From Escherichia coli (lineage in GTDB: Bacteria; Pseudomonadota; Gammaproteobacteria; Enterobacterales; Enterobacteriaceae), in assembly GCF_003334385.1 (NCBI RefSeq), contig NZ_QOWN01000007.1: a DNA stretch of 64,000 bases; one strand, 5' to 3'. The translations under genes were made by a program, and so were the position numbers. Of this stretch, positions 2,244-32,494 are shown one piece after another. The notes below the pieces were generated by a model. It was not told the origin of the DNA. It saw nothing but the letters and a program-made list of their open reading frames with translations, and did no database searches. Position 1 is the first letter of the stretch. Every line of letters begins with the position of its first letter.

Positions 2244-2575
2244 TGAAAGTTATGATTATATTAATGTTATCAATACTTCCATTGTTACCAAGTTTTTCTC
2301 ATGGTGAATCGGCGGAATGTTCCCTTGAAAACTCAGACAGTAAGAGTAATTATTTCGTTGGAAATAAGGAATTAGTAGGTAAATTAGCAGAAATATATGT
2401 AGAGGACCGCTATGGCAAAGATAATGCCATGCGAGAGAAACCTTATCATATTAGCGATAAAGGTAACTTTTGGCAGGTAAGTGGAAACATAGACCCTAAT
2501 GCAACGGGAGGTGTTTTTGTAATAAAAATAGATAAGGTAAACGGGAGAATCATATCATTTACTCATGGGAAATGA
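2243..2575 (+). CDS. Putative Rhs immunity protein with N-terminal signal peptide ([21 protein letters not shown])
   Basis: Small AT-rich ORF whose start overlaps the rhs stop (TAATG); hydrophobic leader; position typical of rhsI genes. No recognisable family. Confidence 0.45.
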   Translation: MKVMIILMLSILPLLPSFSHGESAECSLENSDSKSNYFVGNKELVGKLAEIYVEDRYGKDNAMREKPYHISDKGNFWQVSGNIDPNATGGVFVIKIDKVNGRIISFTHGK

Positions 2576-2593
2576 TTTTTTTGTGCACAGAAA

Positions 2594-2622
2594 TGATCAG
2601 GCCATAGCACATGTCCTGATCA
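2594..2622. terminator. Hairpin (tgatcagg ... cctgatca) flanked by T-run and A-run, between the convergent immunity gene and the 708-aa ORF
   Basis: Inverted repeat read directly from sequence. Confidence 0.4.
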
Positions 2623-2651
2623 AAAATAACCCACGTTAAACGCTGATAAAA

Positions 2652-4778: not shown

Positions 4779-7700
4779 AATTCGCTCCTAAAAGATTAAG
4801 TAAGTATTGATTTACTCTTAATTCTGATTTTATTTTTGCATCATAAGGATTTTTGCCATTATCTTTTTCATAAGATGAAATATTTTTAAAAAGGTTATAA
4901 TAACAGACGCCCTTATGGTTAGAATGTTCGGCACGAATGTTGAGGCTGTTTAAAGCATATCGAGTATTAAGATAAACAACGTCAACACCATCAAACTGTG
5001 TTTTTGCTGTAATGATTTTCTGCAACTCACTGACTTTCCCCAATGAGTTATTATGCATTTTTTTCGCTAATTGTCGGTTATTTCCTTGCATTCGCCAGTT
5101 TTTTACATCGATTGCAACAATCCGGTTCTTGTTAATGCAATACACATCAAACAACTCATAACAAGAGCTATCCAGATAGTACGATAGCTCTTGTGGTGGG
5201 ATCAGCGTAATATTCATTTCCTGGAGAATCAGGTGTAATTGCCATTCACCAATATTGCCAATCAAAAGTGGCAACAATGAAGGAATGGGGATGTATTGTT
5301 GTAAAGGCGTGGCATCTAATCCCAGAATCTTCGCAAAAATACGCTGTTCAGTTCCGGATGACTCTTCAGCCATGGCTTCATGATATTGGGGTAAACAATA
5401 TTCCGGTTTGTATGGATTTGCTCCAGCTGAAATATCTGTTAATCCATAACCATCTAAGGTTTTAGCCAGTATTACATTTTCCCAATCGGCAGTACGCTCC
5501 AGATAAAAATGGCTTACACAGTCGCTAAGGTAAGCATTTTTCTTAATAATCGCGTTGCGTTTAAGACGTTTTATATATGACTGAGGATCGGTAAAACTGT
5601 CCCGGTGACGTAATGCTTCATTTAACTCAATTGCATCTCGATCACCTTGTCTTGCCAGTGGCAAAATTTTATTTTTCAGTTCAGCTTCAAAGTCGCTATA
5701 CATATCTATTGCTTTAGCAACTTTATTTTCAAATTCGCTACGTTGACTATCGGAAGAAAAGCTGGCTTTTAATAAATCCTCTTTTGAGCGTTTGAACCAT
5801 AGATGGTTATGCAGACTCAGGGAAGCAAGTAACGATTGTGCATTTGGATGACGATCCAAATCTCGAAAAACACACAATGCATTATGATGAACACCAGAAG
5901 GTAAACGAATAATCCCATTCATTTGGGCATCACGCCGTTCTGTACGGCCAATAGTTTGCATAGCAATTTTATGAAGCTCGACGGTATGTTCAGTATTCAG
6001 CAATTGGGCCGCATCAGAATCAACTAGATCCGTATCGAAATCACCAACCTGACGAGGTACACTTCCATGAGCATAATGCTTGAGTAAGGTAATATAATTT
6101 TCCAGCGTGTTTCGCGATGGAGTTGCATTAATCTGACTCCAGTAGCTACCGCAGACCATTGCTAATTCATCAAAGTCGATTTGTTCTAAATCTGCTTCTA
6201 CAGGTTCTGACGGTGCCGGATAAGTGACATAATAATTAAGCCCTGTCCCGGCCCCCTGGAAATGGGAAACCATGCATATTGCTAAATTTTGGTGATCGAT
6301 TTGCAGATAGTCTCTTACCGGATCTTCCCGGTTGAGTTTTGAATCAAACATGACGACACGCAATCTATGCCGCTCAGCAAAAGGGGTGATTTCAAATACT
6401 CGAGGTAAATCATTCCCCCGACGTGTTTCATTGTCAAGAATGGTAACCCCACGATAGGGATTTGCACTTAACTTATTGGCACGAAGAAAATTCCCGATAA
6501 TCGCAAAAAAACGGCTACTGATCCCGATACATAAAATGTGCCGACCAGTATAAGCAGCAAGTAACATACATTGTAACTGGCGATGAAACTCTCGTTTATG
6601 ATAGCGATTAAACTGAACTGCTTTAGAGTATGGTTCGAGCATTTTGAGCCAGAAACGATATGCATTCCTGAACTCAGACTCCTCGTTTTGTGGTAAAAAC
6701 TCTAGTACCTGATCGTCAAATACCTCCAACGCTACAGATCGATGAAGGTTTCTGTTGTCACGGATCGTCGACAAGGGCGAGGCAGAATCAACATCCCGCT
6801 GCCTGATGCGATAGTTCAACTCACGAGCGTATTTATCCAGAAACGGGCGGCTGTATTGCCCATTATACGTTGTAGGAAATCCTGCTGTAGCAGACAGCAA
6901 AATAATAGTATTACGCGTATTATAAAGCACACGTAATAATGCTATTTCAGGTAACTCCTTAATTAACTCCATCCGAAATTTGAGTAATACCCAACCCCTC
7001 AGTTGTTCAGCCTCAATTCTTACCTGTTCACGTGGCGAAAGGGAAAACAATGTCTTGGGTTGAAAATAGGTAAAAAAATCATCTATCAACTGTTCTTTCT
7101 GAGGCTCACTGGAAGATAAATGAACTATATCTCCTTTAATACTTTGGGCTTTACGAATGAAAACTGATAATGGGTTATTCTGATTTGCCATCTCCTGCTG
7201 TGCCAGCAAATCGCAGACATGTTTGGGTGTTTCCAACCGGGCAGAGGCTAATAATAGAGCAGTCAGTGTCTGATACAGTTCATATAAGTTAAATTCATCT
7301 GGAACTTTTTTGTCATCTTCAGAAACATAGACTTCAGTGTATGAATGACGCCCGTGACTACGTAAATGAATACGACGAAGGTCTGACTCACGGTAAAATC
7401 GCTGAATCTGATAACTGAAAATATTACCAATTAACGCGATAACCTGCTCAGCATTACGACTATCGACGACGATATCAAGCAAACTATTTCTAAAGAGTCT
7501 GGTCAGCTTCTTAAGATCGAAATCAGGTCGTAAATCACATTGTAATAAAGCTTTGTTGATCTCATCGACATAATTTTTCAGAGGGGTATACCCTGGTGCT
7601 CTTTCATCTGAAGAACATTCATCCACATATTCCAGTACACGATGTAAAATTGCCAGTAACGAAGGAAGTTGCTGATCGTCGTTCATTAATGTCTGGCAAA

Positions 7701-8775
7701 CATTCTGCTGGAAGATACGGTAGGCTTCGTGCTCTTCGTCCAGAACTAATGTGAAACGAATATCACGTTGTGCAAAAGGTGAGTCTTCGTCGGTTATCCA
7801 ATATTGCTCTTTTAAGCTCTCAATTCGCTGTGGATTAGTCTGGTTAGCAATCTCGCCTAACGGATTCACTTTGAGGCCTTTTTTCTGGCCCAGAACGTGG
7901 TCCAGTTGTTGTGAACTCCGGTGATAGTCGCCTTCTTTATCGCGTTTCAGTAACAGCACACTGCCATCGAACTTTTTCGTTGTAGCCAGCAGGATACATC
8001 GGCGATACAGTGCAATCTGAAATGGGAAAAGATGTTTAACCATTTCCGTAGCCAGTGCATATCGAGGATTAGTCGCTTCCCCATCAAGTAAAACCGCCAG
8101 ATCCTGATTCAAGGCATTAAGCATCGCCACAGTCGCTTCCTGTAAGCGACCTGCTAAATGAAAACTATTGAGACGTAACTCATCCTCCAGACGTTTTTGT
8201 TCAAACGTTGCCCCTACTTTAATCTCTGTTTCCAGACGTACTTCCAAACTATTACGCGCATCAACTTCAGCTTTCAGGCGTTGAAAAATAAGCTGAATTT
8301 CACCCGACATCAATTCGTTGGCTTGCTTGATCCAGCGACGATAACGTTCCCGGTTTGTGGGTGTTTTCCCTTCAGGAGATTTGACCCATGACGTAAAACC
8401 AAGATCTGCGATATCCCCTTGCGAAAGATAAGGTAACAATTCAATCTTCTTATCTCGGGCGCGAGCGATGAGTTGTTCCGGGATGTCAATTTGTGATTTC
8501 AAGGGTGTGATAAACACCAGATTGCGATGACTATTGCCAGGGTTGATTGCTGGATTTACGCTTTCGATGTATTGAGCGAAAACGTTATAGCTTTTACCGC
8601 TCGCCGTACCATCCTGGGATTGAATCAGTAGTGGTGTATCTGCTTCGGTAAAAGCGTAAAACGTACCGGCCTGTTTTCTTGCTGCGGTAATGGCTTCTCT
8701 GACACTTTGTGGTAATGGAAGATGTCGAATGTTGTGATTTAGTTCGGATTGCATGTCTTCAATTCCTTCTGGCAC
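4771..8775 (-). CDS. Large hypothetical protein, 1334 aa: P-loop GTASGKS (res 56-62), Walker B-like LVLDEE (res 343-348), C-terminal PD-(D/E)xK-like motif (D1210 ... D1223-V-K1225). Start is GTG at 8775 or ATG at 8754
   Basis: 4 kb ORF in a low-GC region; motifs verified by back-translation of nt 8590-8610, 7729-7749 and 5101-5148. Confidence 0.6.
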   Translation of the reverse strand: MPEGIEDMQSELNHNIRHLPLPQSVREAITAARKQAGTFYAFTEADTPLLIQSQDGTASGKSYNVFAQYIESVNPAINPGNSHRNLVFITPLKSQIDIPEQLIARARDKKIELLPYLSQGDIADLGFTSWVKSPEGKTPTNRERYRRWIKQANELMSGEIQLIFQRLKAEVDARNSLEVRLETEIKVGATFEQKRLEDELRLNSFHLAGRLQEATVAMLNALNQDLAVLLDGEATNPRYALATEMVKHLFPFQIALYRRCILLATTKKFDGSVLLLKRDKEGDYHRSSQQLDHVLGQKKGLKVNPLGEIANQTNPQRIESLKEQYWITDEDSPFAQRDIRFTLVLDEEHEAYRIFQQNVCQTLMNDDQQLPSLLAILHRVLEYVDECSSDERAPGYTPLKNYVDEINKALLQCDLRPDFDLKKLTRLFRNSLLDIVVDSRNAEQVIALIGNIFSYQIQRFYRESDLRRIHLRSHGRHSYTEVYVSEDDKKVPDEFNLYELYQTLTALLLASARLETPKHVCDLLAQQEMANQNNPLSVFIRKAQSIKGDIVHLSSSEPQKEQLIDDFFTYFQPKTLFSLSPREQVRIEAEQLRGWVLLKFRMELIKELPEIALLRVLYNTRNTIILLSATAGFPTTYNGQYSRPFLDKYARELNYRIRQRDVDSASPLSTIRDNRNLHRSVALEVFDDQVLEFLPQNEESEFRNAYRFWLKMLEPYSKAVQFNRYHKREFHRQLQCMLLAAYTGRHILCIGISSRFFAIIGNFLRANKLSANPYRGVTILDNETRRGNDLPRVFEITPFAERHRLRVVMFDSKLNREDPVRDYLQIDHQNLAICMVSHFQGAGTGLNYYVTYPAPSEPVEADLEQIDFDELAMVCGSYWSQINATPSRNTLENYITLLKHYAHGSVPRQVGDFDTDLVDSDAAQLLNTEHTVELHKIAMQTIGRTERRDAQMNGIIRLPSGVHHNALCVFRDLDRHPNAQSLLASLSLHNHLWFKRSKEDLLKASFSSDSQRSEFENKVAKAIDMYSDFEAELKNKILPLARQGDRDAIELNEALRHRDSFTDPQSYIKRLKRNAIIKKNAYLSDCVSHFYLERTADWENVILAKTLDGYGLTDISAGANPYKPEYCLPQYHEAMAEESSGTEQRIFAKILGLDATPLQQYIPIPSLLPLLIGNIGEWQLHLILQEMNITLIPPQELSYYLDSSCYELFDVYCINKNRIVAIDVKNWRMQGNNRQLAKKMHNNSLGKVSELQKIITAKTQFDGVDVVYLNTRYALNSLNIRAEHSNHKGVCYYNLFKNISSYEKDNGKNPYDAKIKSELRVNQYLLNLLGANYD

Positions 8776-9219
8776 AACTGCATTTTGAAAATCGGGTATG
8801 GACGTATTAACGCACCAAACACAGCGTTAAAGGGCTATGTGAAATACTCGCTGAGACGGCTTGTATTCGAAAGGTGGTACGGGCACTTATTATGCTACGC
8901 CCAATCGCAACCGTTATGGTAGTTAAGTGCGTATTTTACCTGACATTATGCAAACGTCAGAAACTTAATCCCATATTTTTATATGGTTAAAAATTCATGT
9001 CTGCTGCTGATTGATTTGCTTCGAATTGGTTCATATCTCACCGCTAAGCTACGTCTGGATATGCGGGCAAATATGGTATAGATGATATGCTGGTTCATTG
9101 TACTTGGCTTGCATGACGGAAGGAAAAGTCAGTAGTAAAAAGGTGGTCATTCTGGAGGTCTTGACAAACAGGGAATTCAGGTTTAGCTTACTTATTAGCC
9201 AGTTACTGGCAAAGGCGAT

Positions 9220-9236
9220 CCCAGTCAGAGGAGCCA
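9220..9236 (+). repeat. Direct copy of the tRNA-Asn 3' end (cCCAGTCAGAGGAGCCA) without the rest of the tRNA; att-like island boundary scar
   Basis: 16-17 nt identical to the 3' acceptor/T-arm end of E. coli tRNA-Asn as I recall it; no full tRNA nearby. Confidence 0.5.
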
Positions 9237-9241
9237 AATTC

Positions 9242-9270
9242 AAAAAAGCCTGCTTTCTAGCAGGCTTTTT
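9242..9270. terminator. Bidirectional rho-independent terminator (A-run, gcctgc/gcaggc stem, T-run) downstream of the minus-strand PTS operon
   Basis: Perfect 6-bp stem with flanking A6/T5 runs. Confidence 0.55.
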
Positions 9271-9294
9271 GCTTTCTAATTACCAACTCTTTGG

Positions 9295-9855
9295 TCATTC
9301 CAGATCAGCGTGTCGGGTAAACATTGTGGCACTGCTTTCACCCAGTTCAGACATCAACTCCAGAACAATTGCATCATAAGTAATAAAGCAGAGTTGCTCA
9401 AAAGCTGAGCCCATTGGTTGTGCGAAAGCGCCTGCAACACGACTGTTATCGTCTTTCACACTTCCTGGTAGTACCAACACAGATTGAGCTAATTTACCGA
9501 TCGTCGAATCTGCTTTCATAGTTACCAGAGCTACGTTTACTCCGCTATCAACTGCTTTTTGTGCCAGACTTTTCAAACTGGTAGTTTCACCACTGCCTGA
9601 CCCAATAATTAATAGATCTCCAGGTTGGGTATGCGGGGATGATATTTCTCCCACAACGCTTACTGAAAAACCTAAATGCAGCAAGCGATTAGCAAAAGCG
9701 CGAATAGCAATGCCACTGCGACCAGCTCCCTGCAAAAAAATATGCCGGGCATTTCTGATTTGCGAAATAAACTGTGCAGCCTGAGCATCGTCAATCTTCA
9801 GCGCATTACTCTCTAATTCATGCAGAATATTAATAGTATTTTCCTGAACACTCAT
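9295..9855 (-). CDS. SIS-domain sugar-phosphate isomerase (6-phospho-3-hexuloisomerase-like)
   Basis: 186-aa translation has SIS-fold hallmarks (GAGRSG, IGSGSGET). Confidence 0.65.
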   Translation of the reverse strand: MSVQENTINILHELESNALKIDDAQAAQFISQIRNARHIFLQGAGRSGIAIRAFANRLLHLGFSVSVVGEISSPHTQPGDLLIIGSGSGETTSLKSLAQKAVDSGVNVALVTMKADSTIGKLAQSVLVLPGSVKDDNSRVAGAFAQPMGSAFEQLCFITYDAIVLELMSELGESSATMFTRHADLE

Positions 9856-9870
9856 TTTTTCTCTCCCTTT

Positions 9871-10623
9871 TTAAGCAATAGTCCGGCCACCATCCATTAA
9901 AATGGTTTGTCCCTGAATATAAGAGTTATCTTTATCTGCCAAAAATATTGCCAGGTTAGCCACATCATCGATAGTCCCCAGACGACGGACGGGTATTTTT
10001 TCCAGGACAGCGTCTAAATCGGCTTGTGTTGGATAGTTGACCCGCATCATCTCTCCGGTGTCTATTAAGCGGGGAGCAATCGCATTGACATTGACGCCTT
10101 TTGGTCCTAACTCTTTTGCCAGCCCACGAATCAATCCTTCGCCTCCCGCTTTACTGGCAGGATAACTGACACCGCCCCCAGTCCCCGAAAGCGCTGATCC
10201 CGATGAGATATAAACAATAGATCCCTTATTTGTCAGGAAATCATCATAAAACGCCTTAACGGTATTAAATAATCCTGATAAGTTAATTGCGATAGTCTTA
10301 TTCCATTCCTCAAAAGAAATATTGTTAACTTTATTGGCAAATGCCACACCGGCATTTAATATCAACACATCAATGCGACCAAAGGTAGCAAATACCTTTT
10401 CCCGAACATCCACTAATGCCTGTGGATCGGAGACATCTGTTTTAATAAACAACGATTTAACATCGCCAAAAGTTAACTCTGCTGCAGTGGCCTTGCCGTT
10501 CTCTTCGTTATAGTCAACAATAACAGTATGTGCACCACGATCAGCAAATTGTTTAGCTATCCCTTTGCCAATACCGTGAGCACCTCCGGTAACTAAAACC
10601 ACTTTACCTGCAAAATTACTCAT
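9871..10623 (-). CDS. Short-chain dehydrogenase/reductase (SDR) family oxidoreductase
   Basis: N-terminal TGGAHGIGKG Rossmann motif and YxxxK-type catalytic region. Confidence 0.75.
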   Translation of the reverse strand: MSNFAGKVVLVTGGAHGIGKGIAKQFADRGAHTVIVDYNEENGKATAAELTFGDVKSLFIKTDVSDPQALVDVREKVFATFGRIDVLILNAGVAFANKVNNISFEEWNKTIAINLSGLFNTVKAFYDDFLTNKGSIVYISSGSALSGTGGGVSYPASKAGGEGLIRGLAKELGPKGVNVNAIAPRLIDTGEMMRVNYPTQADLDAVLEKIPVRRLGTIDDVANLAIFLADKDNSYIQGQTILMDGGRTIA

Positions 10624-10720
10624 TACTTTTCTCCATTAAAGACATTTTTTAGCTGAGGTTTTCCTCCCGATATGAAATCGAAAACCTCACTTAACTGGAT
10701 GTGAAATTTTTAGATTGTGA

Positions 10721-11365
10721 TCACTGAACAGCGATTTTTAATGCCTGATAACTTTCACGAGGCTGTTTGTTAAATAAGGCACCACCAACAACAATAAGGT
10801 CAGCCCCTGCTTCTTTAACTTGTTTTACATTATCAAGATTAACGCCACCATCCACTTCAATTTGAATATCTCTGGCAGATATCATTTTTTTGGTATTACG
10901 GATTTTCTCCAGACTTTTATGAATAAATGTCTGGCCTGGTTGCCCTGGGTTAATTGTCATTAACAATATATAATCAATATCATCTAATAAATATTCGATT
11001 ACAGATTCAGGTGTCCCAGGATTAAGCACAACACCTGCTTTGCGACCCGCCTTTTTGATTTTTTGAATAATATAATGTACATGTGGCGTCGATTCATAAT
11101 GTACAGAAATCATCTCCGCCCCGGTATTGATTACATCATCAATATGTCGCTCAGGATTTGCCAGCATCATGTGTACGTCAAAGATCATCGAACTGGCTTT
11201 TTTCATTGCTGCTATTTGATTTGGGCCAAAGGCAATATTACTGACATAAGTGCCATCCATTAAATCAACGTGCAATATTTCGGTTTGTTCCTCTTCCAGA
11301 AAATGAATTTCATCTTTCAGGCGTAAAATATCCGCGCCAAATATAGAAGGTAATATTTTTGCCAT
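10721..11365 (-). CDS. Ribulose-phosphate 3-epimerase family protein (SgcE/AlsE-like hexulose/pentulose-phosphate 3-epimerase)
   Basis: 214-aa TIM-barrel epimerase-like sequence (HVDLMDG ... DGG). Confidence 0.7.
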   Translation of the reverse strand: MAKILPSIFGADILRLKDEIHFLEEEQTEILHVDLMDGTYVSNIAFGPNQIAAMKKASSMIFDVHMMLANPERHIDDVINTGAEMISVHYESTPHVHYIIQKIKKAGRKAGVVLNPGTPESVIEYLLDDIDYILLMTINPGQPGQTFIHKSLEKIRNTKKMISARDIQIEVDGGVNLDNVKQVKEAGADLIVVGGALFNKQPRESYQALKIAVQ

Positions 11366-11387
11366 GTTAAAACTCCAGAATATTAAA

Positions 11388-12641
11388 TCAATGTAATACG
11401 GTACTCAACCAATAGGTTAAAATTTCCCACGGGCCGGTTAATACAAAATCAGTACCTTGTCCTTGCAAGCCTACACCGGCTCCAGCTAAAAATTGCGTTG
11501 CCCCTGGTGCGACATAACCGCCTAAATACATCACTACAACGCAGAATAACAAGGTCGAGATAATCGAACGAATCACGTTACCGTTGCTCGCCATTACGGT
11601 CATGGTGGTCATATAAATAATTGACATCAATACGCCAATTGGGAAGATCTTAATATCAGGTAATACCAGAGCACATAGCATGGTTAAAGGAATGGTAATG
11701 ACTGTCACGGTGACCGTCGCCGGATCCCCCAACGCTAGTGCACAATCCATACCGATGTTTAATTCAGCATCTTTACCCATCTGTTTTTGCATGATTTCTT
11801 TGGCACTTTTCCCTATTGGGTTAAGACCTTCCATCAGCACACCGACCACTTTAGGTAACAATACCATTACGCCAGCAACCCCCATCGCCATGGGAACAAT
11901 TGTGGTAATTGCCTGTTTCGTTAAAACTCCGAGTAATGCGCCAACGATAACACCGATAATTGCAGGTTCACCAAAGACACCCAGGCGTTTTTGCACACTG
12001 TTTAAGTCAACATCTAACTTATTTAACCCTGGGATGTAATCAATGATTTTATTTACTACCCAGGCGAACGGTAGAGTCCAGCCGATATGAATCATCGTGG
12101 TACAGGTCGTTCCCTCGAGTCCATAATATTTTTGCCATCTGGGCGCAATCAAATCGCCAATAAACAGAGCCGCAATACTCAAAGCCACCGCGACAGAGAA
12201 GCCGATGATAAAACTGTCGAACACAAAATATGCCAGAGCACCCGGAACTAAAAAATGCATATAGTTCCAGATATCAACATTTAACGTTTTGGTTAATTTC
12301 AGACGCACCAGAATCAGGTTAAGTACGATGCCAACTGGTATCACCAATGCGGCGAAAGGTGCCACCCATGCAGCAGCACCGACTGCAGGCCAACCAATAT
12401 CTGCTACCGTAAAGCCACTACCTACTTTTGAGTAATACTCAATAGCTGGCTGTAATGAACTATTTAATAAACCAACAACCAGACCTAAACCAATAAAACC
12501 AATACCGACTGTGATGCCCGACTTGATCGCGGCACCGGGTTTCATTCTGAACACCAGACCTAAAATAAATATCACCAGCGGCAGTATTGCAGTTGCCCCC
12601 ATTCCGGTGATTGTTTCCATTAAATTTTTCAACATTTCCAT
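11388..12641 (-). CDS. PTS EIIC component, galactitol (GatC/SgcC) family
   Basis: 417-aa polytopic membrane protein with GatC-like sequence. Confidence 0.75.
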   Translation of the reverse strand: MEMLKNLMETITGMGATAILPLVIFILGLVFRMKPGAAIKSGITVGIGFIGLGLVVGLLNSSLQPAIEYYSKVGSGFTVADIGWPAVGAAAWVAPFAALVIPVGIVLNLILVRLKLTKTLNVDIWNYMHFLVPGALAYFVFDSFIIGFSVAVALSIAALFIGDLIAPRWQKYYGLEGTTCTTMIHIGWTLPFAWVVNKIIDYIPGLNKLDVDLNSVQKRLGVFGEPAIIGVIVGALLGVLTKQAITTIVPMAMGVAGVMVLLPKVVGVLMEGLNPIGKSAKEIMQKQMGKDAELNIGMDCALALGDPATVTVTVITIPLTMLCALVLPDIKIFPIGVLMSIIYMTTMTVMASNGNVIRSIISTLLFCVVVMYLGGYVAPGATQFLAGAGVGLQGQGTDFVLTGPWEILTYWLSTVLH

Positions 12642-12661
12642 TTTTATTATTCCTGTCAGGT

Positions 12662-12955
12662 TTAGCTATTTGCTAATTCAGTTAATAACTCTCCTAATTT
12701 CTTGCGTAATGCTCCTTCATTAATGCCCGTTACAAAACCTGCAACGCTCATATGTGGTTTCCCAATATCACCTTTATAGTTATTAGTTGTGAGTACAATA
12801 TCTGCATGAGCCATCTCAGAAGAAAGTTCAGCCATACTGCATTTGTTGATTTTAAATGCCGTAATACCATATTCAGCACATACTGACTTCACTTCATCAG
12901 CAGCAAGCGTAGAGGTAGCGACACCGCTACCACAAGCAACAAGAATATTAATCAT
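12662..12955 (-). CDS. PTS EIIB component, galactitol family (active-site Cys in VACGSG)
   Basis: 97-aa GatB-like sequence. Confidence 0.7.
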   Translation of the reverse strand: MINILVACGSGVATSTLAADEVKSVCAEYGITAFKINKCSMAELSSEMAHADIVLTTNNYKGDIGKPHMSVAGFVTGINEGALRKKLGELLTELANS

Positions 12956-12973
12956 AATAAACTCCAGTTTTTA

Positions 12974-13417
12974 CTATTGGATTATTTTGGATACAAAAAG
13001 TGCTTTTGCATCATCGACGGGAAGTGTCAGTAAGTTTTGGTAAAATTCTTCATTTTGGAGATGGTTAAATAATGGCTTTAACAATCGAAGCTGGTCAGCA
13101 GGATCCGTAACAATAAGATTAACGACGAGTCTGACCCACAATATTCCATCTTCATCAGCCCTGTTCACAGGTATTGCGTCTGGCAGACGGATGATATAAA
13201 TAGCAGGTTGATTCGCATGTTCACTATCACAGTGTGGTATAGCGATAGAATAACCTTCCAGTTCTATTCCTGTCGGATATTCCGCTTCGCGTTTACGCAT
13301 AGCATTGAGCCAGCTCTCTTTCACCGTATTCGTTGTACGGTGCGTGTTAAAAATATGCTCAAGCACGGCATCGTAATTCTGCAGTCCCGCACCATCGGCA
13401 ACACTGATCGATATCAT
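12974..13417 (-). CDS. PTS EIIA component (mannitol/fructose-type EIIA, SgcA-like)
   Basis: 147-aa EIIA-like sequence with GYSIAIPH motif. Confidence 0.7.
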   Translation of the reverse strand: MISISVADGAGLQNYDAVLEHIFNTHRTTNTVKESWLNAMRKREAEYPTGIELEGYSIAIPHCDSEHANQPAIYIIRLPDAIPVNRADEDGILWVRLVVNLIVTDPADQLRLLKPLFNHLQNEEFYQNLLTLPVDDAKALFVSKIIQ

Positions 13418-13744
13418 ATCCTTTCCCCCTCACCCAAAAATGCTCACATGAGCATTGAGCAATATTCATATGAGCAGTTATAGCACAACGATCCTGTGGA
13501 TAAATAACGAGATCTGAGAAATTAAATCCAGATCACAAAAAAGCACATAATGGCGTCAGTATTTATGCTCATATGAGCAAATCGTGATTTCTTCGCAAAA
13601 AAGTAACTGAAACTGGCAATAGGCAGAGGATGTATTCAATAGAGGGCGCTAAGCAAGCATCGCCATGGATGCTCACTTGATAATTGGGAAATGATTACAT
13701 TTGGCAAAGCTGATTCGAAGGGAGAAGGCGTGTCGTAGTGAGTT

Positions 13745-14500
13745 CTAACAGGTTATTACTGACGTGTATTTTGCGACTTCGGCAATCCCCTCTTTGTCGG
13801 CATGATCGTTGGTTATAAGTGCGGTGATCTCCGACCAGTCGCAGATCTTAAATAAACTGCTGCGCTCAAACTTGGTGTAATCACCGAGGATATATTTTTT
13901 GTCTGAGTGCGAAATTATCGTACGATCCAAAAACGCATCAGAAGAAGAAGGCGTCGATGGACCAGTCATGTTACTAAAGCCGTCGGTTCCAATAAAACAG
14001 AGATCAACATGTATATCGTTGATCATAGATACCGCCCACCCCCCAAACACTGAGGAACTCTTTCTACGCAGTTCGCCGCCAAAGAGAAAAACCTGGTTGT
14101 CAGATTCAATCAACACACTGGCAACGGGGAGCGAATCTGTGAAGATTTTAAACCCAGACTTCATACATAACAGGTTAGCCAGCTCAAAAGTGGTACTGCC
14201 CGTACCGATAATCATCGAACTATTAGGCGGAATGAAATCAAGCGCTTTACGAGCTATCGCCTTCTTATAAGAGTTATTTTCTTTTTCCCTGACCTGAAAG
14301 GGATGCTCTATAGCCCTTTGCTTTAAAGTCGCCCCACCATGGCTTTTGATCAGCAGCCCTTTTTGTTCAAGATGGGTCAAATCTTTCCTGATGGTCTCAT
14401 ACGTTACTTCATACTTTCGTGCAAGATCACTGACATAGACCGTACCTGCCGACATTAAGTCTTCAAGTATTAACTTTCGCCTTTCATCAACCAGATACAT
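13745..14500 (-). CDS. DeoR-family transcriptional regulator (GatR/SgcR-like)
   Basis: N-terminal DeoR HTH and C-terminal sugar-phosphate-binding domain. Confidence 0.75.
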   Translation of the reverse strand: MYLVDERRKLILEDLMSAGTVYVSDLARKYEVTYETIRKDLTHLEQKGLLIKSHGGATLKQRAIEHPFQVREKENNSYKKAIARKALDFIPPNSSMIIGTGSTTFELANLLCMKSGFKIFTDSLPVASVLIESDNQVFLFGGELRRKSSSVFGGWAVSMINDIHVDLCFIGTDGFSNMTGPSTPSSSDAFLDRTIISHSDKKYILGDYTKFERSSLFKICDWSEITALITNDHADKEGIAEVAKYTSVITC

Positions 14501-14692
14501 CCTTCCTCCTGAAATCTATTACCCATCTTAGAAAACGCCAAGCATAGCACAGATGATACAAACAAAAACAAACACTAACAGTGGAAAGTACAAATAAACC
14601 CAATAAAGACAATAGTTCAAAAACCATATATACGATTGATAATAAATGAGTTTTTATTATTCATTACAACGCCACTGTACAATCCCAATTTG

Positions 14693-14797
14693 TCTCAATT
14701 GGCTTATTTTATTTTTTATTTGTTTTTATTGGTTTTTAATTTCATAAAAATCAATTAGTTATAAATTTTGTGATTCAGATCTCAATTGGAAACCAAT
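14693..14797. promoter_or_regulatory. AT-rich divergent control region with a direct 10-mer repeat TCTCAATTGG (14693-14702 and 14780-14789) and palindrome ATTGG-AAA-CCAAT (14785-14797); candidate operators
   Basis: Repeats read from sequence in the gap between the DeoR regulator and the divergent PTS cassette. Confidence 0.3.
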
Positions 14798-14848
14798 ATT
14801 TACCAACAGCATACTTGGCTTTAGTTACTTAACGACAGGCAAAATGAA

Positions 14849-15385
14849 ATGAAAACAAAGATTGCTATCGCAAGCGATGATGTAGGTTTTGCACGTAAAG
14901 AGGAGATCAAAAAATACCTCATAGAAGAGAAAAACATGGAGATCGTGTACGATCCCGTCACATGTAAGGAACAAGGTGTCAATAACTTCGCGCGTCTGGC
15001 CGACGAAATGGCAGGCATTATTCAACGCGATGAGTGCCGTCTGGGAATTTACATTTGTGGGACTGGCATTGGCTTTACTTGTCAGATCAACAAACACTGG
15101 GGCATAAGAGCCGTTGCGGTTACTAACCCCTACTCCGCAAAGCGGGCGCGACTCAGCAATAACGCACAAGTTATTGGACTGGGTTGCCGGGTCAACGATC
15201 TCGAATACAGCAAAATGATTGTCGATGCATGGTTGGATAACCCATTCGACTTCACCACCGCCAGAGAAAATTCTAAAAAGAACTTGCTAGAAGCTGAACG
15301 TAACGATAATGCATTGCTGGTTAAGCCCGCTGATGTACGCTGGAATATGGGTTTCCGACCAGATGATGAAAAATCTGAGGGTTAA
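14849..15385 (+). CDS. RpiB/LacAB-family sugar-phosphate isomerase
   Basis: 178-aa translation resembles the ribose-5-P isomerase B / galactose-6-P isomerase family. Confidence 0.6.
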   Translation: MKTKIAIASDDVGFARKEEIKKYLIEEKNMEIVYDPVTCKEQGVNNFARLADEMAGIIQRDECRLGIYICGTGIGFTCQINKHWGIRAVAVTNPYSAKRARLSNNAQVIGLGCRVNDLEYSKMIVDAWLDNPFDFTTARENSKKNLLEAERNDNALLVKPADVRWNMGFRPDDEKSEG

Positions 15386-15388
15386 TGT

Positions 15389-16759
15389 ATGGAACTGATC
15401 ACGCAATTTATAAACGATCTGGGAAATTTTATATTTATCCCGGTCATCTTCCTGATACTGATGAAGATACTTGGCCGTCCTCTTTCAGAATGTATCTCGT
15501 CTGCCATCAAAGTCGGCATTGGTTTCATTGCGCTAACCATGACCATCAAACTGATGCTGGAAAAAATGCAACCGGCAGTCACTGGATTAGCAGAAGCAAC
15601 AGGTTCCTCGCTCAGTGCCATCGATGTTGGTGGCGCAGCAACTGCGGTTATGGGATTTGGCTCCAGCATGGGCGCTATCATTATTCCCCTCTGTGTTGCG
15701 GTAAATATTGCAATGCTGGTCGCCCGTCTGACTGACTGTGTTAACGTTGATGTTTTCAACCTTCATCAAAATGCGTCAATGGGGGCAATTGTTGGCGTCT
15801 ATTCTGGTAGCTTCCTGTATGGCGCATTGACCGCCGCGCTATTCCATGTATGGGCGCTGATCGCTGCCGATCTTGGTGCTAAAAATAACGAAAAATTCTT
15901 TAACCTGCCAAAAGGTGTTGCGATCTGTCACCCGGTTGCCAATACCTACTTACTTTTCGCTTATCCATTCAACTGGATTTATGATCGCATCCCAGGCTTC
16001 CGTAATCTGAATGTGACCGCCGAAACTATTCAAAAACGGTTTGGCATTCTCGGCGATCCAACTATGGTTGGTTTTATTATTGGTATTTTGTTGGGCTTTT
16101 GTGGTTATGGCTGGAAATCCCCATACCACACCATAATCGCCAGCCTACAGTTAGGGATGTATCTTGCTGCAGTCATGCTTCTGTTGCCACGTATGACCTC
16201 TATCATGATGGAAGGGCTTGTTCCGCTTTCCAACGTAGCACGCAAAAAACTGGTCAAACGTTTCCCGGATCGTCAAATCACTGTTGGTATGGACACTGCT
16301 CTGATTGTGGGCCATCCATCAGTTATCGCCCCTGCATTATTGCTGATCCCGGTGATTGTGATCCTCGCCGTGATCTTGCCCGGCAACCGCGTTATGCCAC
16401 TGGGTGATCTCTCTCAGTTTGTGTTTTTCATTGCCTGCATGGTACCTGTTTTCAATGGCAACATTATTCGCACCTGGGTGACCTCGATCATTTTGTTTGG
16501 TGGTGGTTTGTATATTGCATCATGGATGGCACCGGCTACCAACGAAGTCTTCCAGAAGTTTGGTACAAACCCGGATGCCAGCGTGATGTACTCTTCGCTT
16601 AACCCGTCAGCGAATCCATTTACTGGTCTGTTTGCCGCCCTGAGCCATGTTGGAATCATTGGCTATGTGATGGCAGGTATCCTTTTGTTATCTATTGGAT
16701 ACTTAATTAAACAAAAATCACGTCGCCAGATTGAAACGGATTTGGAAAAAGCGCTTTAA
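15389..16759 (+). CDS. PTS EIIC component, galactitol family (second cassette)
   Basis: 456-aa polytopic membrane protein paralogous to the 11388-12641 product. Confidence 0.75.
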   Translation: MELITQFINDLGNFIFIPVIFLILMKILGRPLSECISSAIKVGIGFIALTMTIKLMLEKMQPAVTGLAEATGSSLSAIDVGGAATAVMGFGSSMGAIIIPLCVAVNIAMLVARLTDCVNVDVFNLHQNASMGAIVGVYSGSFLYGALTAALFHVWALIAADLGAKNNEKFFNLPKGVAICHPVANTYLLFAYPFNWIYDRIPGFRNLNVTAETIQKRFGILGDPTMVGFIIGILLGFCGYGWKSPYHTIIASLQLGMYLAAVMLLLPRMTSIMMEGLVPLSNVARKKLVKRFPDRQITVGMDTALIVGHPSVIAPALLLIPVIVILAVILPGNRVMPLGDLSQFVFFIACMVPVFNGNIIRTWVTSIILFGGGLYIASWMAPATNEVFQKFGTNPDASVMYSSLNPSANPFTGLFAALSHVGIIGYVMAGILLLSIGYLIKQKSRRQIETDLEKAL

Positions 16760-16782
16760 ATCTTTTACAGAGGAATAATCAA

Positions 16783-17067
16783 ATGAAAAAAATCTTAGTA
16801 GCTTGCGGAAACGGAATTGCCTCATCTTCCATCATGGTCTCTGTACTGCAGGACTTCCTGAAAGAAGAGAAAATTGAAGCGCAAGTCGATAAATCTTCGT
16901 TAATGGCATGCACCAGCGATACCTTCAACAGCTATGACCTGGTGGTTTCATCAACCAAACTCGATAACCCGGCCATTACTACTCGTGTCATCGTTGGCGC
17001 TGGATTACTGACTGGTCTGGGCGAAGATGAGATTTTCGCTGCAGTTAAAGAAGAGATGTTGAAATAA
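16783..17067 (+). CDS. PTS EIIB component (VACGNG active site)
   Basis: 94-aa GatB-like sequence. Confidence 0.7.
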   Translation: MKKILVACGNGIASSSIMVSVLQDFLKEEKIEAQVDKSSLMACTSDTFNSYDLVVSSTKLDNPAITTRVIVGAGLLTGLGEDEIFAAVKEEMLK

Positions 17068-17077
17068 CAGGTGTGCA

Positions 17078-17536
17078 ATGAAATTTGAAATTCTGGTGAA
17101 TGATGTTGATAACAGCATCAGTGACTATCAAACGGCGATCACCTTTGCTGGTACGCAATTATTGGAAAAAGGCTACATCACTGCAGAATACATTGACGCC
17201 TGCCTGGAACGTGAAAAAAGCTATCCGACAGGACTAATGATGGCAAACGGTCAGGGTATCGCCATTCCCCATGCCGATTACACGCTGGTAAATGTAAACA
17301 GTATCAGTATTGTTCGTTTCGCCAATGATGTCACTTTCGGACAGATGGAAGATGCTGATTTAACAGTTGATTGTAGCATTATGTTTAACCTGGCATTTGC
17401 CACCAGTGATCAACATATGTCGATATTGCGTCGTTTATTCACACTGTTTCAGGATAACGCCTTTGTTGAGACTTGCCGCAATTTACCTGCAACGCGCGTG
17501 GCTAAATATGTAGAGGATACGCTCGCAGCGTCCTGA
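17078..17536 (+). CDS. PTS EIIA component (GIAIPHAD active-site His)
   Basis: 152-aa EIIA-like sequence. Confidence 0.7.
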   Translation: MKFEILVNDVDNSISDYQTAITFAGTQLLEKGYITAEYIDACLEREKSYPTGLMMANGQGIAIPHADYTLVNVNSISIVRFANDVTFGQMEDADLTVDCSIMFNLAFATSDQHMSILRRLFTLFQDNAFVETCRNLPATRVAKYVEDTLAAS

Positions 17537-17587
17537 AATTAAAAGGGCAGAATCAGCGGTACTGCCCTTTCTTCACTGATATGGCTA

Positions 17588-18565
17588 TTAATCCAGAAGT
17601 TTAATGGCCGTATCAAAATCAGTAATTAAGACATTTAAAAGTCCAGATTTCAGCGAAGCAAGAATGCCTTCATATTTTTCTTCTCCTCCAGCGACACCAA
17701 TCACTTTTTTGGCTTTTTGTAGTTGATCCGTCGAAATGCCAAATCCCAGACGTTCAATAGGACTATGAAGAATCTTCCCTTCCCTGCTGACCAACGAGAT
17801 ACACACATCCGCAGCGATATCTTGTTGAAACAAAGCTTCGCACCAGGTATCCGGAAATATTTTACACAAGCTTGAAGAACCTGATTTCCAGTCACCTATC
17901 CCGGTGATAACCACATCCAACTGTGAGTAATATTGCTGTGTATCTAATACCGCAGGATCACCTGCCAGTCTGGCAGCAAGCTCTTCGTCATCGACCCACA
18001 TCGGCACGTACATTGGGTGCGCTTTTCCCTGCGAAATGGCAGCGATCTTATGAATAAGATCTATTGGCCCCTGACTAAACTCGATCCCCGGATGTACGCC
18101 AGATAACTGCACAACGTCTAAAGGAGGCAACTTGCTCAACTTACTGACCGTGCTTGATAATACACGTCCCCAGGCGATCCCCACTTTCATATCTTCATGA
18201 AGAGATTGCATAAGATATTCAGCGGTGACTTCACCCAATTTGTGATTGAGTTCTTCTTGCGTCGTCCAGGATTCAGCAACTGAAAGAACAATTGCATCTT
18301 CCAGATGAAATTTTTTCCGTAGATTATTAGCGATTTCTTCATCCATCGCTTGCTGCTTAGGGAAGATAAACCTCACGTATTCCTGTTCGATCGCCTCATC
18401 GATCAATCTGGCAACTTTAAAGCGGGAAACGCCAAGCTCCTCTGCAATCTCAATCTTGGTTTTCATATCCGCAAAATAACGTCTGACCACGAGCGAGTAT
18501 ATGTAGCGAGGATCGTAACCCTGCCAGCGGCTGTTTTTTTTCTGTTTCGTCATTCTCTTTTCCAT
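17588..18565 (-). CDS. SorC/DeoR-type sugar-binding transcriptional regulator
   Basis: 325-aa protein with N-terminal HTH and SorC-like effector domain. Confidence 0.65.
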   Translation of the reverse strand: MEKRMTKQKKNSRWQGYDPRYIYSLVVRRYFADMKTKIEIAEELGVSRFKVARLIDEAIEQEYVRFIFPKQQAMDEEIANNLRKKFHLEDAIVLSVAESWTTQEELNHKLGEVTAEYLMQSLHEDMKVGIAWGRVLSSTVSKLSKLPPLDVVQLSGVHPGIEFSQGPIDLIHKIAAISQGKAHPMYVPMWVDDEELAARLAGDPAVLDTQQYYSQLDVVITGIGDWKSGSSSLCKIFPDTWCEALFQQDIAADVCISLVSREGKILHSPIERLGFGISTDQLQKAKKVIGVAGGEEKYEGILASLKSGLLNVLITDFDTAIKLLD

Positions 18566-18726
18566 TGATCATGTCATCAGCAAACATGTATAAATCAGAA
18601 GAGTATAACGATTATGCTCATAAGAGATGCGCATATGAGAAGAAAATTATCATTTGTATGATTCGAAACAACCTGTTCTGCATGACGTAATGCTTACACA
18701 GACCGAAAAACCAGACGTTTTGAATG

Positions 18727-19653
18727 TCAAAATCCGTTACGGTTGATATTCACAGGCATTCCCGTTCGTCGTTGCAACGCAGCATTTGCGCGATTCACAT
18801 CAACTTCTTGACCGTTGATAAACGCCCGCAAAGATGGGGTTACCGGCAATGGCACTTTTCGGTCAGACTCATATTCTGCACGATTGCGCGACAACGGCTC
18901 ATGAACTTCCAGCCAGTTCGAGCCATCTGGTTCAGTGGTGTATTTTACTGGCTGGTCGATAATTTGCACACGCGTCCCAACAGGAACATTATCAAACAGA
19001 TATTTGATATCGTCATTGCGCAGACGAATACAGCCCTGACTTACCCGGAGCCCAATACCAAAATTGGCATTGGTACCATGGATGGCATACAACCTGCCAA
19101 TATAAATCGCGTACAGCCCCATGGGATTATCGGGGCCCGCAGGAACAAATGCGGGCAAACTCTCCCCTCGTTTCGCATATTCGCGCCGAGTGTTCGGCGT
19201 TGGCGTCCAGGTTGGAGCTTCTTGTTTACGTTCAACGGTAGTCACCCAGTTACGCGGGGTTTCTCGCCCAGCCTGGCCGATACCAATAGGAAAGACTTCC
19301 ACAGTATTACTGTCTGGTGGGTAGTAATAAAGACGCATCTCAGCGACGTTAACCACAATCCCTTTACGAACAGTGGCGGGCAAAATCAGTTGCTGCGGAA
19401 TGGTGAGTTGCGAGCCAGACTTCGGCAAAAAAACATCAGCGCCCGGGTTCGCTTCCAGCATGTTACTTAACCCTTGCCCGTATTGTGCGGCAAAAGTCTC
19501 CAGCGGCTGGGTATTGTGATCAGGAACAGTTACAGTAAACGACTGCCCCACTAAACGGCTACCCTCTGGAGGTAATGGATAAGTTACAGCCAGGCTAGTA
19601 TGGCTGGCAAAAAGCAGAGCAAATGAGCAAAAAATATTTACACGACGCATCAT
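18727..19653 (-). CDS. ldtA: L,D-transpeptidase LdtA (ErfK)
   Basis: Signal peptide plus YkuD domain; matches recalled E. coli ErfK; lies beside cobT as in K-12. Confidence 0.85.
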
Positions 19654-31411: not shown

Positions 31412-31751
31412 AGAACATACGCCCGCTATTGTCGTTACGGAAATAGGTGACTGTATCAGTACATGGAATGAGGTGCTTCTTGGCATTGAAGAGGAAGGCA
31501 TCCCCTTTCGCATTCAACACATTCCGTCAGGTGAAGTTATCGATAGCGCCTGGCTGGCTGCTCGTCAATCTCCCCTGTTGGTTGGCATTGCCTGCGATCA
31601 GGAAAAACTGATTGTGCATTACAAAAACTTACCGGCATCAGCGCCACTGTTTACGCTGATGTATCAACAAGATAACCATGCCCGGCGCAGCATTGGCTCT
31701 AACGCAGCCCGCCTGGTAAAAGGGATTCCCTTCCGGGAATTCCACACATAA
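31401..31751 (+). CDS. pduH: Diol dehydratase reactivase small subunit
   Basis: 116 aa, matches PduH. Confidence 0.85.
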
Positions 31752-31770
31752 TCCACAGGAGAAACGCAGT

Positions 31771-32046
31771 ATGAACAACGCACTAGGACTGGTTGAAACA
31801 AAAGGGTTAGTTGGCGCAATTGAAGCTGCAGATGCCATGGTTAAATCCGCCAACGTGCAACTGGTTGGCTATGAAAAGATTGGTTCGGGTCTGATTACGG
31901 TGATGGTCCGCGGTGATGTTGGCGCAGTCAAGGCCGCCGTGGATGCGGGGAGCGCTGCGGCAAGCGCAGTTGGCGAAGTGAAATCCTGCCATGTCATCCC
32001 GCGCCCACACAGTGATGTTGAGGCTATTTTACCTAAATCGGCATAA
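31771..32046 (+). CDS. pduJ: BMC-H shell protein
   Basis: 91 aa PduA paralogue. Confidence 0.9.
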
Positions 32047-32492: not shown

Positions 32493-32494
32493 CA

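Follow-up and report, generated by a model that had tools for sequence, protein, structure and literature searches.

Two joined galactitol-family phosphotransferase modules between asnV and ldtA in Escherichia coli, with a proposed route through 3-hexulose-6-phosphate

The sgc cluster of Escherichia coli K-12 (sgcR-E-A-Q-C-B-X), located in the yjh region, is an orphan phosphotransferase system (PTS) locus encoding galactitol (Gat)-family enzymes IIA, IIB and IIC (EIIA, EIIB and EIIC), an epimerase of the ribulose-phosphate 3-epimerase (Rpe) family and a DeoR-family regulator. The same families recur in a 9.3-kb block (9295–18565) of E. coli contig NZ_QOWN01000007.1, which we analysed within a 64,000-nt window, i.e. 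the whole stretch of DNA to which all coordinates given here refer. Unlike sgc, the block sits between asnV (tRNA-Asn) and ldtA-cobTSU, and it additionally encodes a short-chain dehydrogenase/reductase (SDR), a 6-phospho-3-hexuloisomerase (PHI), an RpiB-like isomerase and a SorC-family regulator, none of which has a gene in sgc. An initial annotation of the sequence had called the block sgc-like; this holds at the level of protein families but not as orthology. When the block proteins were compared with those of K-12 by BLASTP, identities to Sgc, AlsE and RpiB were at the level of paralogues (26–40%): EIIC to SgcC, 31–36% (36% for the cassette 2 protein); EIIB to SgcB, 35–37%; the Rpe-like enzyme to SgcE, 31%, and to AlsE, 33%; the DeoR-family regulator to SgcR, 26%; and the RpiB-like protein to K-12 RpiB, 40%. 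Against the Gat proteins, EIIC reached 33–34% (GatC) and EIIA 33–39% (GatA), the enzyme II identities being 33–39% for cassette 1 and 22–33% for cassette 2. No BLASTP match to SgcA, SgcQ or SgcX was found among the block proteins and, with identities to Sgc proteins of only ~26–37% and SgcQ and SgcX lacking a counterpart, orthology to sgc was rejected.

Rather than an sgc orthologue, the block appears to join two mobile modules that import a rare hexitol and a related hexose, both routed via 3-hexulose-6-phosphate to fructose-6-phosphate; we favour this reading tentatively, putting it somewhat short of an even chance.

Gene content and modular organisation

Twelve intact open reading frames (ORFs) were detected within the block by ORF calling and an NCBIfam profile search, each with strong family matches, bearing out the gene content and two-cassette layout of the initial annotation. 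Identical DNA carries the same generic gene annotation in RefSeq. The features are as follows:

9221–9290, plus strand: left boundary, a 3′ remnant of asnV with its terminator (matches the tRNA-Asn sequence of E. coli genomes)
9295–9855, minus strand: PHI/HxlB-type SIS protein (6-phospho-3-hexuloisomerase) of cassette 1, 186 aa (TIGR03127)
9871–10623, minus strand: classical SDR of cassette 1, 250 aa
10721–11365, minus strand: ribulose-phosphate 3-epimerase family enzyme of cassette 1, 214 aa (TIGR01163)
11388–12641, minus strand: Gat-family EIIC of cassette 1 (TIGR00827)
12662–12955, minus strand: EIIB of cassette 1 (GatB-type match)
12974–13417, minus strand: EIIA of cassette 1 (GatA-type match)
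13441–13579: promoter/operator region of cassette 1, with three palindromes
13745–14500, minus strand: DeoR/GlpR-family regulator, 251 aa (AgaR/GlpR-like matches)
14501–14848: divergent control region of the DeoR gene and cassette 2, with a CRP-like site and repeats
14849–15385, plus strand: RpiB/LacA/LacB-family sugar-phosphate isomerase of cassette 2, 178 aa with a C-terminal extension (TIGR00689)
15389–16759, plus strand: Gat-family EIIC of cassette 2 (TIGR00827)
16783–17067, plus strand: EIIB of cassette 2, 94 aa (ascorbate EIIBC model)
17078–17536, plus strand: EIIA of cassette 2 (GatA-type match)
17537–17587: 51-bp gap in place of a second PHI gene, SIS2, that complete versions of cassette 2 have here (by comparison with other loci)
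17588–18565, minus strand: SorC-family sugar-binding regulator (PF04198-type; RefSeq start at 18553)

Two further ORFs, 9098–9379 (plus strand, 93 aa, overlapping the tRNA remnant and hxlB) and 18724–19470 (plus strand, 248 aa, antisense to ldtA), are almost certainly spurious.

The cassette 1 PHI scores 209 bits against the equivalog-domain model TIGR03127 (cutoff 160), and its nearest solved structure in a PDB sequence search is B. subtilis YckF/HxlB (1M3S, 151 bits); orthologues share 74–84% identity in other Enterobacterales and 62–68% in Firmicutes. The Rpe-like enzyme retains the catalytic His and Asp motifs and exceeds the cutoff of the Rpe equivalog TIGR01163 (235 bits versus 212.6), whereas it falls well below that of the AlsE model NF007266 (178 bits versus 271); in the PDB search, it was likewise nearer to the true Rpe 2FLI (192 bits) than to AlsE 3CT7 (123 bits). 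For the SDR, no NCBIfam equivalog was reached and the PDB sequence matches were to generic FabG-like SDRs only. Its homologues, 62–93% identical across Enterobacterales, Gilliamella, Firmicutes and an actinobacterial metagenome-assembled genome (MAG), nearly always adjoin the Rpe-like gene and PHI, and we propose that it is a putative sugar-alcohol-phosphate dehydrogenase. The SDR of Enterococcus sp. CU9D (locus L024, 10001–10753) is 92% identical to the E. coli protein, while its neighbours reach just 68–74% and the SDRs of other enterococci 83–84%; gene conversion, transfer of the SDR only or an assembly chimera could be the cause.

In cassette 2, the RpiB-like protein exceeds the cutoff of the broad RpiB/LacA/LacB model TIGR00689 (99.7 bits versus 88.3) but not that of the RpiB equivalog TIGR01120 (103.8 bits versus 138.65), and lies far under those of the LacA and LacB equivalogs. 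The catalytic Cys-Gly-Thr motif is retained, while an Asp and a Ser align with two histidines of K-12 RpiB, which we take to be active-site residues, and the positions of its C-terminal Arg and His, presumably involved in phosphate binding, also differ. PDB sequence searches with the SDR, RpiB-like, Rpe-like and PHI proteins returned matches at family level only, with no clue to a substrate.

Both PTS sets belong to the Gat family (TC, Transporter Classification, 4.A.5), as the initial annotation had it: each EIIC matches TIGR00827, the EIIC-GAT model (cassette 1, E value 4e-96, 322 bits; cassette 2, E value 1e-104, 350 bits), and both EIIAs and the cassette 1 EIIB match GatA- and GatB-type models, while the cassette 2 EIIB matches only the ascorbate EIIBC model. 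The corresponding Pfam domains (PF03611, PF02302 and PTS_EIIA_2) are present in orthologues. However, membership of the galactitol-specific GatABC equivalogs is not indicated, as all of these scores are under the respective cutoffs (EIIC, 542; cassette 1 EIIB, 50.7 bits versus 95; EIIA, 136 and 82 bits for cassettes 1 and 2 versus 139). The enzyme II proteins of the two cassettes are 28–29% identical to one another. Neither the PTS proteins nor the SDR reached an NCBIfam equivalog, and full-text literature searches found no paper on the cluster and no characterised orthologue, in keeping with the earlier view that the substrates have no known assignment; orthology to characterised operons with known substrates was looked for and none was found.

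A scan of one genome per species, anchored on the SDR, returned 31 loci (SDR 62–93% identical), whose genes were mapped by ORF calling and BLASTP. Cassette 1 is EIIA-EIIB-EIIC-Rpe-SDR-PHI, in an order that is sometimes permuted. It occurs in the Enterobacterales genera Citrobacter, Klebsiella, Enterobacter, Pectobacterium, Brenneria, Erwinia, Pantoea, Providencia and Izhakiella (the Rahnella locus, at a contig edge, yielded only the SDR and PHI), as well as in Vibrio, Gilliamella, Enterococcus, Paenibacillus, Streptococcus cuniculi, L. plantarum, the Clostridia Enterocloster, Anaerostipes and Hespellia, and an Austwickia MAG. Seven enterobacterial loci carry cassette 1 without cassette 2. The reverse arrangement was found in S. 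gallolyticus and on an IncF conjugative plasmid of K. pneumoniae, where cassette 2 is flanked by ISNCY copies. The RpiB-like gene was detected on 39 plasmids and the SDR on 36, of which 29 and 15, respectively, are from Klebsiella; the modules travel on conjugative Klebsiella and Enterobacter plasmids and on Pantoea plasmids from onion, and occupy a tRNA-linked hotspot in E. coli. The block was initially interpreted as one sgc cluster with an added dehydrogenase and isomerase; since each cassette occurs alone elsewhere, it instead appears to be two self-contained, independently mobile modules that have been joined.

A third type of module was found in Firmicutes, comprising an activator with PTS regulation domains (PRD), EIIA, EIIC-GAT, EIIB, a YjbQ-family protein (PF01894) in the position that the SDR occupies in cassette 1, an Rpe-like enzyme and PHI. 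It is present in Enterococcus and Streptococcus mitis (seven loci). Among plasmids, the PHI query matched 146 Enterococcus records; all of those listed are from E. faecium, with 49% identity, and the gene order, read for one E. faecium plasmid (L017), is that of the YjbQ type.

One addition to the initial interpretation concerns the end of cassette 2. Complete versions finish with a fifth gene, SIS2, encoding a second PHI that is 51–53% identical to that of cassette 1. All SIS2 proteins pass the TIGR03127 cutoff (189–204 bits; 189–209 for SIS2 and the clostridial variants together). SIS2 was found in Pectobacterium, Enterobacter, Citrobacter, K. oxytoca, Vibrio, Enterococcus (locus L045) and L. 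plantarum, and in both standalone examples of cassette 2 (S. gallolyticus and the K. pneumoniae plasmid). Copies with at least 80% identity to the SIS2 of the Klebsiella plasmid are present on 34 plasmids, a set that was not cross-checked for overlap with the 39 plasmids bearing the RpiB-like gene. The gene is missing only where a cassette 1 PHI is adjacent, namely in E. coli, Enterobacter wuhouensis, Entomohabitans, Providencia, one Enterococcus and Gilliamella (besides E. coli, loci L021, L024, L025, L026 and L041). A tblastn search of the window with SIS2 matched only the cassette 1 PHI, with no SIS2 remnant, and E. coli cassette 2 has lost the gene. Because SIS2 is absent only beside a cassette 1 PHI, this distribution suggests that the latter can replace it and that both modules would converge on the PHI step.

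Control regions, genomic setting and selection in E. coli

The initial annotation had assigned the DeoR regulator to cassette 1 and SorC to cassette 2, a pairing that is probably swapped. The SorC gene, whose product gives B. subtilis DeoR-like and LsrR-like matches, immediately precedes cassette 1, in the same orientation, in all seven cassette-1-only loci and in Vibrio. The DeoR gene, by contrast, invariably faces away from the RpiB-like gene, even in the two loci with cassette 2 but no cassette 1; in Vibrio, it is divergent from cassette 2 and not upstream of cassette 1. In E. coli, ~140 bp beside the cassette 1 EIIA gene are homologous to the SorC-EIIA spacer of the cassette-1-only loci. 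As SorC directly precedes cassette 1 elsewhere and DeoR stays divergent from the RpiB-like gene, the E. coli DeoR-plus-cassette-2 unit looks as though it was inserted between sorC and the cassette 1 operon.

The promoter region of cassette 1 contains three copies of a perfect 14-bp palindrome, TGCTCATATGAGCA (13441–13454, 13463–13476 and 13566–13579), together with an extended −10-like TGcTATAAc and a conserved TGTGATC motif. A fourth, weak copy with two mismatches is located upstream of sorC (18628–18641), giving four matches in the window versus 0.23 expected by chance. The aligned palindrome region upstream of the cassette 1 EIIA gene is conserved in 10 genera, and the palindrome precedes cassette 1 in nearly all loci with SorC beside an intact cassette 1, the exception being the Rahnella locus. 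It was not found upstream of cassette 1 in any SorC-less locus, i.e. the Firmicute loci (which have PRD-type activators or no regulator) and Gilliamella; the sole match there, with two mismatches, lies inside the Rpe gene of locus L048. We therefore propose the palindromes as candidate SorC binding sites, and the co-occurrence of a PF04198 regulator with a conserved palindrome is consistent with a SorC-family regulator acting at a palindromic operator.

The control region of cassette 2 is built differently from that of cassette 1 and carries a CRP-like site, TGTGATTCAGATCTCA (14769–14784), beside a −35-like element, and repeated ACCAA/TTGGT motifs within 14501–14848 represent candidate DeoR operators. 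The CRP-like site and repeats are kept in Pectobacterium, Enterobacter, Citrobacter, Klebsiella (chromosome and plasmid) and Gilliamella. Taken together, the co-occurrence of genes elsewhere and the distribution of the operator motif suggest that SorC probably controls cassette 1 and DeoR cassette 2. The −35 element of cassette 2 (14786–14791) reads TTGGAA in E. coli and TTGACA in the Pectobacterium, Enterobacter, Citrobacter and K. oxytoca loci and on the Klebsiella plasmid, and this departure from the consensus may lower the basal expression of cassette 2 in E. coli. No terminator was predicted between the DeoR gene and the cassette 1 EIIA gene; transcripts that start at the DeoR promoter could therefore run on into cassette 1 and provide PHI during induction of cassette 2.

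At the left boundary, 9221–9290 comprises the last 16 nt of asnV and the asnV hairpin terminator (9243–9270), a stretch of asnV and downstream sequence that matches thousands of E. coli genomes. In BL21-type strains, ldtA directly follows asnV, and the left-boundary stretch of the window aligns to 3001–3067 of locus L002, from one such strain. Strain MCJCHV-1 has an intact asnV, the block and ldtA with nothing further between, whereas ARAGORN detected no intact tRNA within the window. The asnV remnant stems from the integration of another, distinct island at asnV, on the left side of the block, and the terminator in the remnant may double as the end of the cassette 1 operon. This island (129–8775) ends at the truncated asnV 3′ repeat and encodes three large proteins of 704, 708 and 1334 aa, the latter two of which are hypothetical in the annotation of related strains; a PADLOC search with the three returned no match. 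GC content is 36–44% over 2001–9000, and in related strains (L001), an RHS core protein and an immunity protein are encoded further to the left. On the other side of the block, two ORFs downstream of cobUST (23144–25109) open a long run of same-strand ORFs (~23144–39315). At the matching position, MCJCHV-1 carries pocR and pduF, suggesting that the run is probably an accessory propanediol-utilisation (pdu) operon; in CFSAN061761 and ATCC 8739, only an EutP/PduV pseudogene fragment is present there.

Among 5426 complete E. coli genomes, 226 carry at least 80% of the block and 279 the SorC-ldtA junction, a carriage of ~4–5% that includes ATCC 8739 and NRG 857C; the block is 100% identical in several complete genomes. 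Some 50 genomes keep the junction with less than 80% of the block. Strain TL012 (L060, 2082–4194) is without the block and retains a 194-bp remnant, equivalent to 18507–18700 (the 5′ end of the SorC gene and upstream sequence), directly following an insertion sequence, IS1, and an integrase pseudogene that adjoins asnV; this looks like the scar of an IS1-associated deletion. The sole E. coli ‘plasmid’ record with the block, CP088875.1 (393 kb; RpiB-like 100% and SDR 99.2% identical), may represent either an unusually large plasmid or chromosomal sequence assigned to the wrong replicon.

Two E. coli lineages of the block could be compared. Synonymous divergence (dS) ranges from 0.02 to 0.14, being ~0.09 for most genes and similar in the flanking genes (ldtA, 0.15; cobT, 0.11), and the ratio of non-synonymous to synonymous divergence (dN/dS) does not exceed 0.13 in 10 of the 12 block genes. 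For cassette 2, it is 0–0.02, except in the 94-aa EIIB, which shows one change of each kind. As all 12 ORFs are intact in both lineages and dN/dS is low, the block genes are under purifying selection in E. coli, maintained rather than decaying.

A proposed route to fructose-6-phosphate and its rivals

No catabolic enzyme other than PHI is shared by all variants, and in cassette 1, cassette 2 and the Firmicute YjbQ type alike it scores above the TIGR03127 cutoff. The simplest reading is that all the modules would make D-arabino-3-hexulose-6-phosphate, which would exit as fructose-6-phosphate. From gene content, we infer every enzymatic step and the substrate class as follows. Module 1 (a SorC repressor, EIIA-EIIB-EIIC, the Rpe-like enzyme, the SDR and PHI) would import and phosphorylate a sugar alcohol, most likely a hexitol. 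Oxidation by the SDR would turn the hexitol phosphate into a keto-sugar phosphate, in our proposal a 3-hexulose-6-phosphate, the Rpe-like enzyme would epimerise the carbon adjoining the keto group, and PHI would convert D-arabino-3-hexulose-6-phosphate to fructose-6-phosphate. Carbons 3–6 of 3-hexulose-6-phosphate would mimic carbons 2–5 of ribulose-5-phosphate, which would explain an epimerase nearer to true Rpe than to AlsE. SorC would repress the module via the three palindromes around its promoter, with a sugar phosphate probably relieving repression. Module 2 (a DeoR repressor divergent from the RpiB-like gene, EIIC-EIIB-EIIA and, in complete versions, the second PHI) would import an aldohexose related to the module 1 substrate; the RpiB-like enzyme would isomerise the aldohexose-6-phosphate to a ketohexose-6-phosphate, from which PHI would yield fructose-6-phosphate, a route that would be chemically easiest for the allose/allulose series. 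Having lost its own PHI, E. coli module 2 presumably depends on that of module 1, possibly through read-through of the DeoR gene.

Neighbouring genes in other taxa are suggestive of hexitols and hexuloses. The Anaerostipes operon adds a GatD-like dehydrogenase, a hexose/tagatose-6-phosphate kinase, a GatY aldolase and a psicose-3-epimerase-like protein; in Enterococcus, a hexitol-phosphatase-like HAD protein follows PHI; and in an Erysipelotrichaceae locus, the SDR homologue adjoins an Rpe-like gene and a 3-hexulose-6-phosphate synthase (237 bits, cutoff 200).

Several points weigh against this scheme. In the Anaerostipes and Erysipelotrichaceae loci, the homologues are more distant: Rpe and PHI at 37–46% identity, or the SDR at 62%. 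As the Rpe-like enzyme passes the Rpe cutoff and the RpiB-like protein is closest to RpiB, pentose-phosphate chemistry would fit equally well. An aldose-ketose isomerase and PHI alone form no textbook route to fructose-6-phosphate, such that PHI would have to accept a non-canonical ketohexose-6-phosphate or receive help from a host enzyme. To our knowledge, no SDR oxidising C3 of a hexitol phosphate has been characterised. Self-regulation by SorC is weakly indicated, by a single site with two mismatches. The most novel form of the proposal, namely an undescribed entry to glycolysis in which a PTS-made sugar phosphate is taken to 3-hexulose-6-phosphate and on to fructose-6-phosphate by PHI, via C3 oxidation by the SDR and Rpe-family epimerisation (cassette 1) or via the RpiB-like enzyme and PHI (cassette 2), is one that we regard as doubtful, clearly less probable than the general scheme.

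Two alternatives with other chemistry are each unlikely in our estimation, though not negligible. In one, the modules would feed the pentose-phosphate pathway, cassette 1 from a pentitol (D-arabitol, ribitol or xylitol) and cassette 2 from a pentose or pentulose: the SDR would make ribulose- or xylulose-5-phosphate, the epimerase would be a true Rpe, RpiB would interconvert ribose-5-phosphate and ribulose-5-phosphate, and the PHI-like SIS proteins would act like an arabinose-5-phosphate isomerase or be accessory. The model scores of the Rpe-like enzyme, above the Rpe equivalog cutoff and nearer to Rpe than to AlsE, and the best matches of the RpiB-like protein, which are to RpiB, agree with this, yet PHI would be unneeded on such a route and an above-cutoff PHI is retained in every variant, while the extra Anaerostipes genes serve a hexitol and tagatose. 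We know of no PTS for free pentoses. Sorbitol-dehydrogenase-type enzymes, moreover, are medium-chain enzymes and not SDRs. PMC6685057, citing Kentache 2016 and Povelainen 2003, documents Gat-family PTSs for D-arabitol in Firmicutes, which favours a pentitol, but annotates the characterised arabitol-phosphate dehydrogenases as sorbitol-dehydrogenase-type. Marginally less probable again is a specific sub-case of the hexose reading, in which the block would be an allose/allulose/allitol system parallel to the K-12 als genes. Cassette 2 would import D-allose, which the RpiB-like enzyme would take to allulose-6-phosphate, or D-allulose directly; the Rpe-like enzyme would be an allulose-6-phosphate 3-epimerase; allitol would enter through cassette 1 and be oxidised to allulose-6-phosphate by the SDR; and PHI would provide a secondary or alternative epimerising route. 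By chemical reasoning, allulose-6-phosphate is the only ketohexose-6-phosphate that shares 3-hexulose intermediates with fructose-6-phosphate. In K-12, RpiB converts allose-6-phosphate to allulose-6-phosphate and AlsE takes this to fructose-6-phosphate (PMC12216980), the cassette proteins being 40% and 33% identical to these two enzymes, and an Rpe-family protein encoded beside a PTS in C. innocuum, 35% identical to AlsE, complemented alsE and is an allulose-6-phosphate epimerase (PMC12216980). Set against this, the Rpe-like enzyme reaches only 178 of the 271 bits of the AlsE cutoff, PHI is given no necessary role in cassette 1, and the existence of standalone cassette 2 without any Rpe-like gene means that the epimerase cannot be required for cassette 2.

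It is also conceivable, if improbable, that the block, or at least cassette 2 after the loss of its PHI, is a cryptic remnant that is non-functional in E. coli and being lost. The low carriage, the missing second PHI, the TTGGAA in place of TTGACA, the IS1-associated deletion in one strain and the ~50 genomes with a junction and an incomplete block could all be seen in this light. However, decay is at odds with 12 of 12 intact ORFs in two lineages at a dS of ~0.09 and with the low dN/dS of cassette 2 outside its EIIB. The loss of SIS2, too, recurs in three other enterobacterial genera, one Enterococcus locus and Gilliamella, always beside cassette 1, which suggests redundancy.

If the 3-hexulose-6-phosphate route holds, PHI would have a sugar-catabolic role in non-methylotrophic gut, plant-associated and food bacteria, outside formaldehyde fixation, and Rpe- and RpiB-family paralogues would act on undescribed sugar phosphates, including a new class of substrate for the Rpe family. 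Because the modules are highly mobile, the substrate could be a nutrient that defines a niche for commensals and opportunistic pathogens alike, and it may be one of the rare sugars that have come into use as sweeteners. The revised pairing of regulators and the operator motif provide promoters and repressors that could be used to find the inducer.

Comparison with known systems

Several other E. coli loci were considered and set aside. The vpe operon of extraintestinal pathogenic E. coli (ExPEC), an sgc-like PTS linked to urovirulence, resembles the block in being an accessory carbohydrate PTS locus on E. coli genomic islands, but PMC5382810 places it beside deoK on another region of difference. 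An ExPEC locus with SIS_PHI, PtsG-like and RpiR genes and the ‘hxlB’ marker of a necrotising enterocolitis (NEC) study each correspond to a different locus, and the D-tagatose cluster of E. coli B2 strains is described in the abstract of its paper as a six-gene cluster, with nothing there that matches the block.

As proposed for the block, the E. coli gat operon (gatYZABCD-R) pairs a Gat-family PTS that imports a hexitol with a dehydrogenase that oxidises the hexitol phosphate. It differs in its exit, via the tagatose-bisphosphate aldolase GatYZ and not PHI, and in its dehydrogenase, GatD, a medium-chain enzyme annotated as galactitol-1-phosphate 5-dehydrogenase. The als genes and rpiB, which serve D-allose, likewise use an RpiB-type isomerase and an Rpe-family epimerase to take a rare aldohexose-6-phosphate to fructose-6-phosphate. 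However, als relies on an ABC transporter and the AlsK kinase and not on a PTS, and the block proteins fall short of the AlsE and RpiB equivalog cutoffs.

Among Firmicutes, the D-arabitol/pentitol Gat PTS operons (Listeria lmo2659-2668, Enterococcus avium and B. methanolicus atlABCD) also pair a PTS with a polyol-phosphate dehydrogenase and share PRD-type activators with the Firmicute versions of cassette 1. The Listeria arabitol operon additionally has Rpe and RpiB genes. The dehydrogenases of these operons are annotated as sorbitol-dehydrogenase-type enzymes (PMC6685057). The operons also differ from the block in products that enter the pentose-phosphate pathway and in requiring no PHI.

The hxlA-hxlB ribulose monophosphate pathway of B. 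subtilis and methylotrophs is approached through PHI itself, which passes the HxlB model and, among solved structures, is closest in sequence to B. subtilis YckF/HxlB. Unlike in that pathway, the window encodes no 3-hexulose-6-phosphate synthase and the block PHI is linked to a PTS and sugar-modifying enzymes, implying sugar catabolism and not formaldehyde fixation. Among Gat-family PTS catabolic operons, the locus stands out for its putative shared exit through PHI, an SDR conserved at 62–93% across phyla and a modular, plasmid-borne spread.

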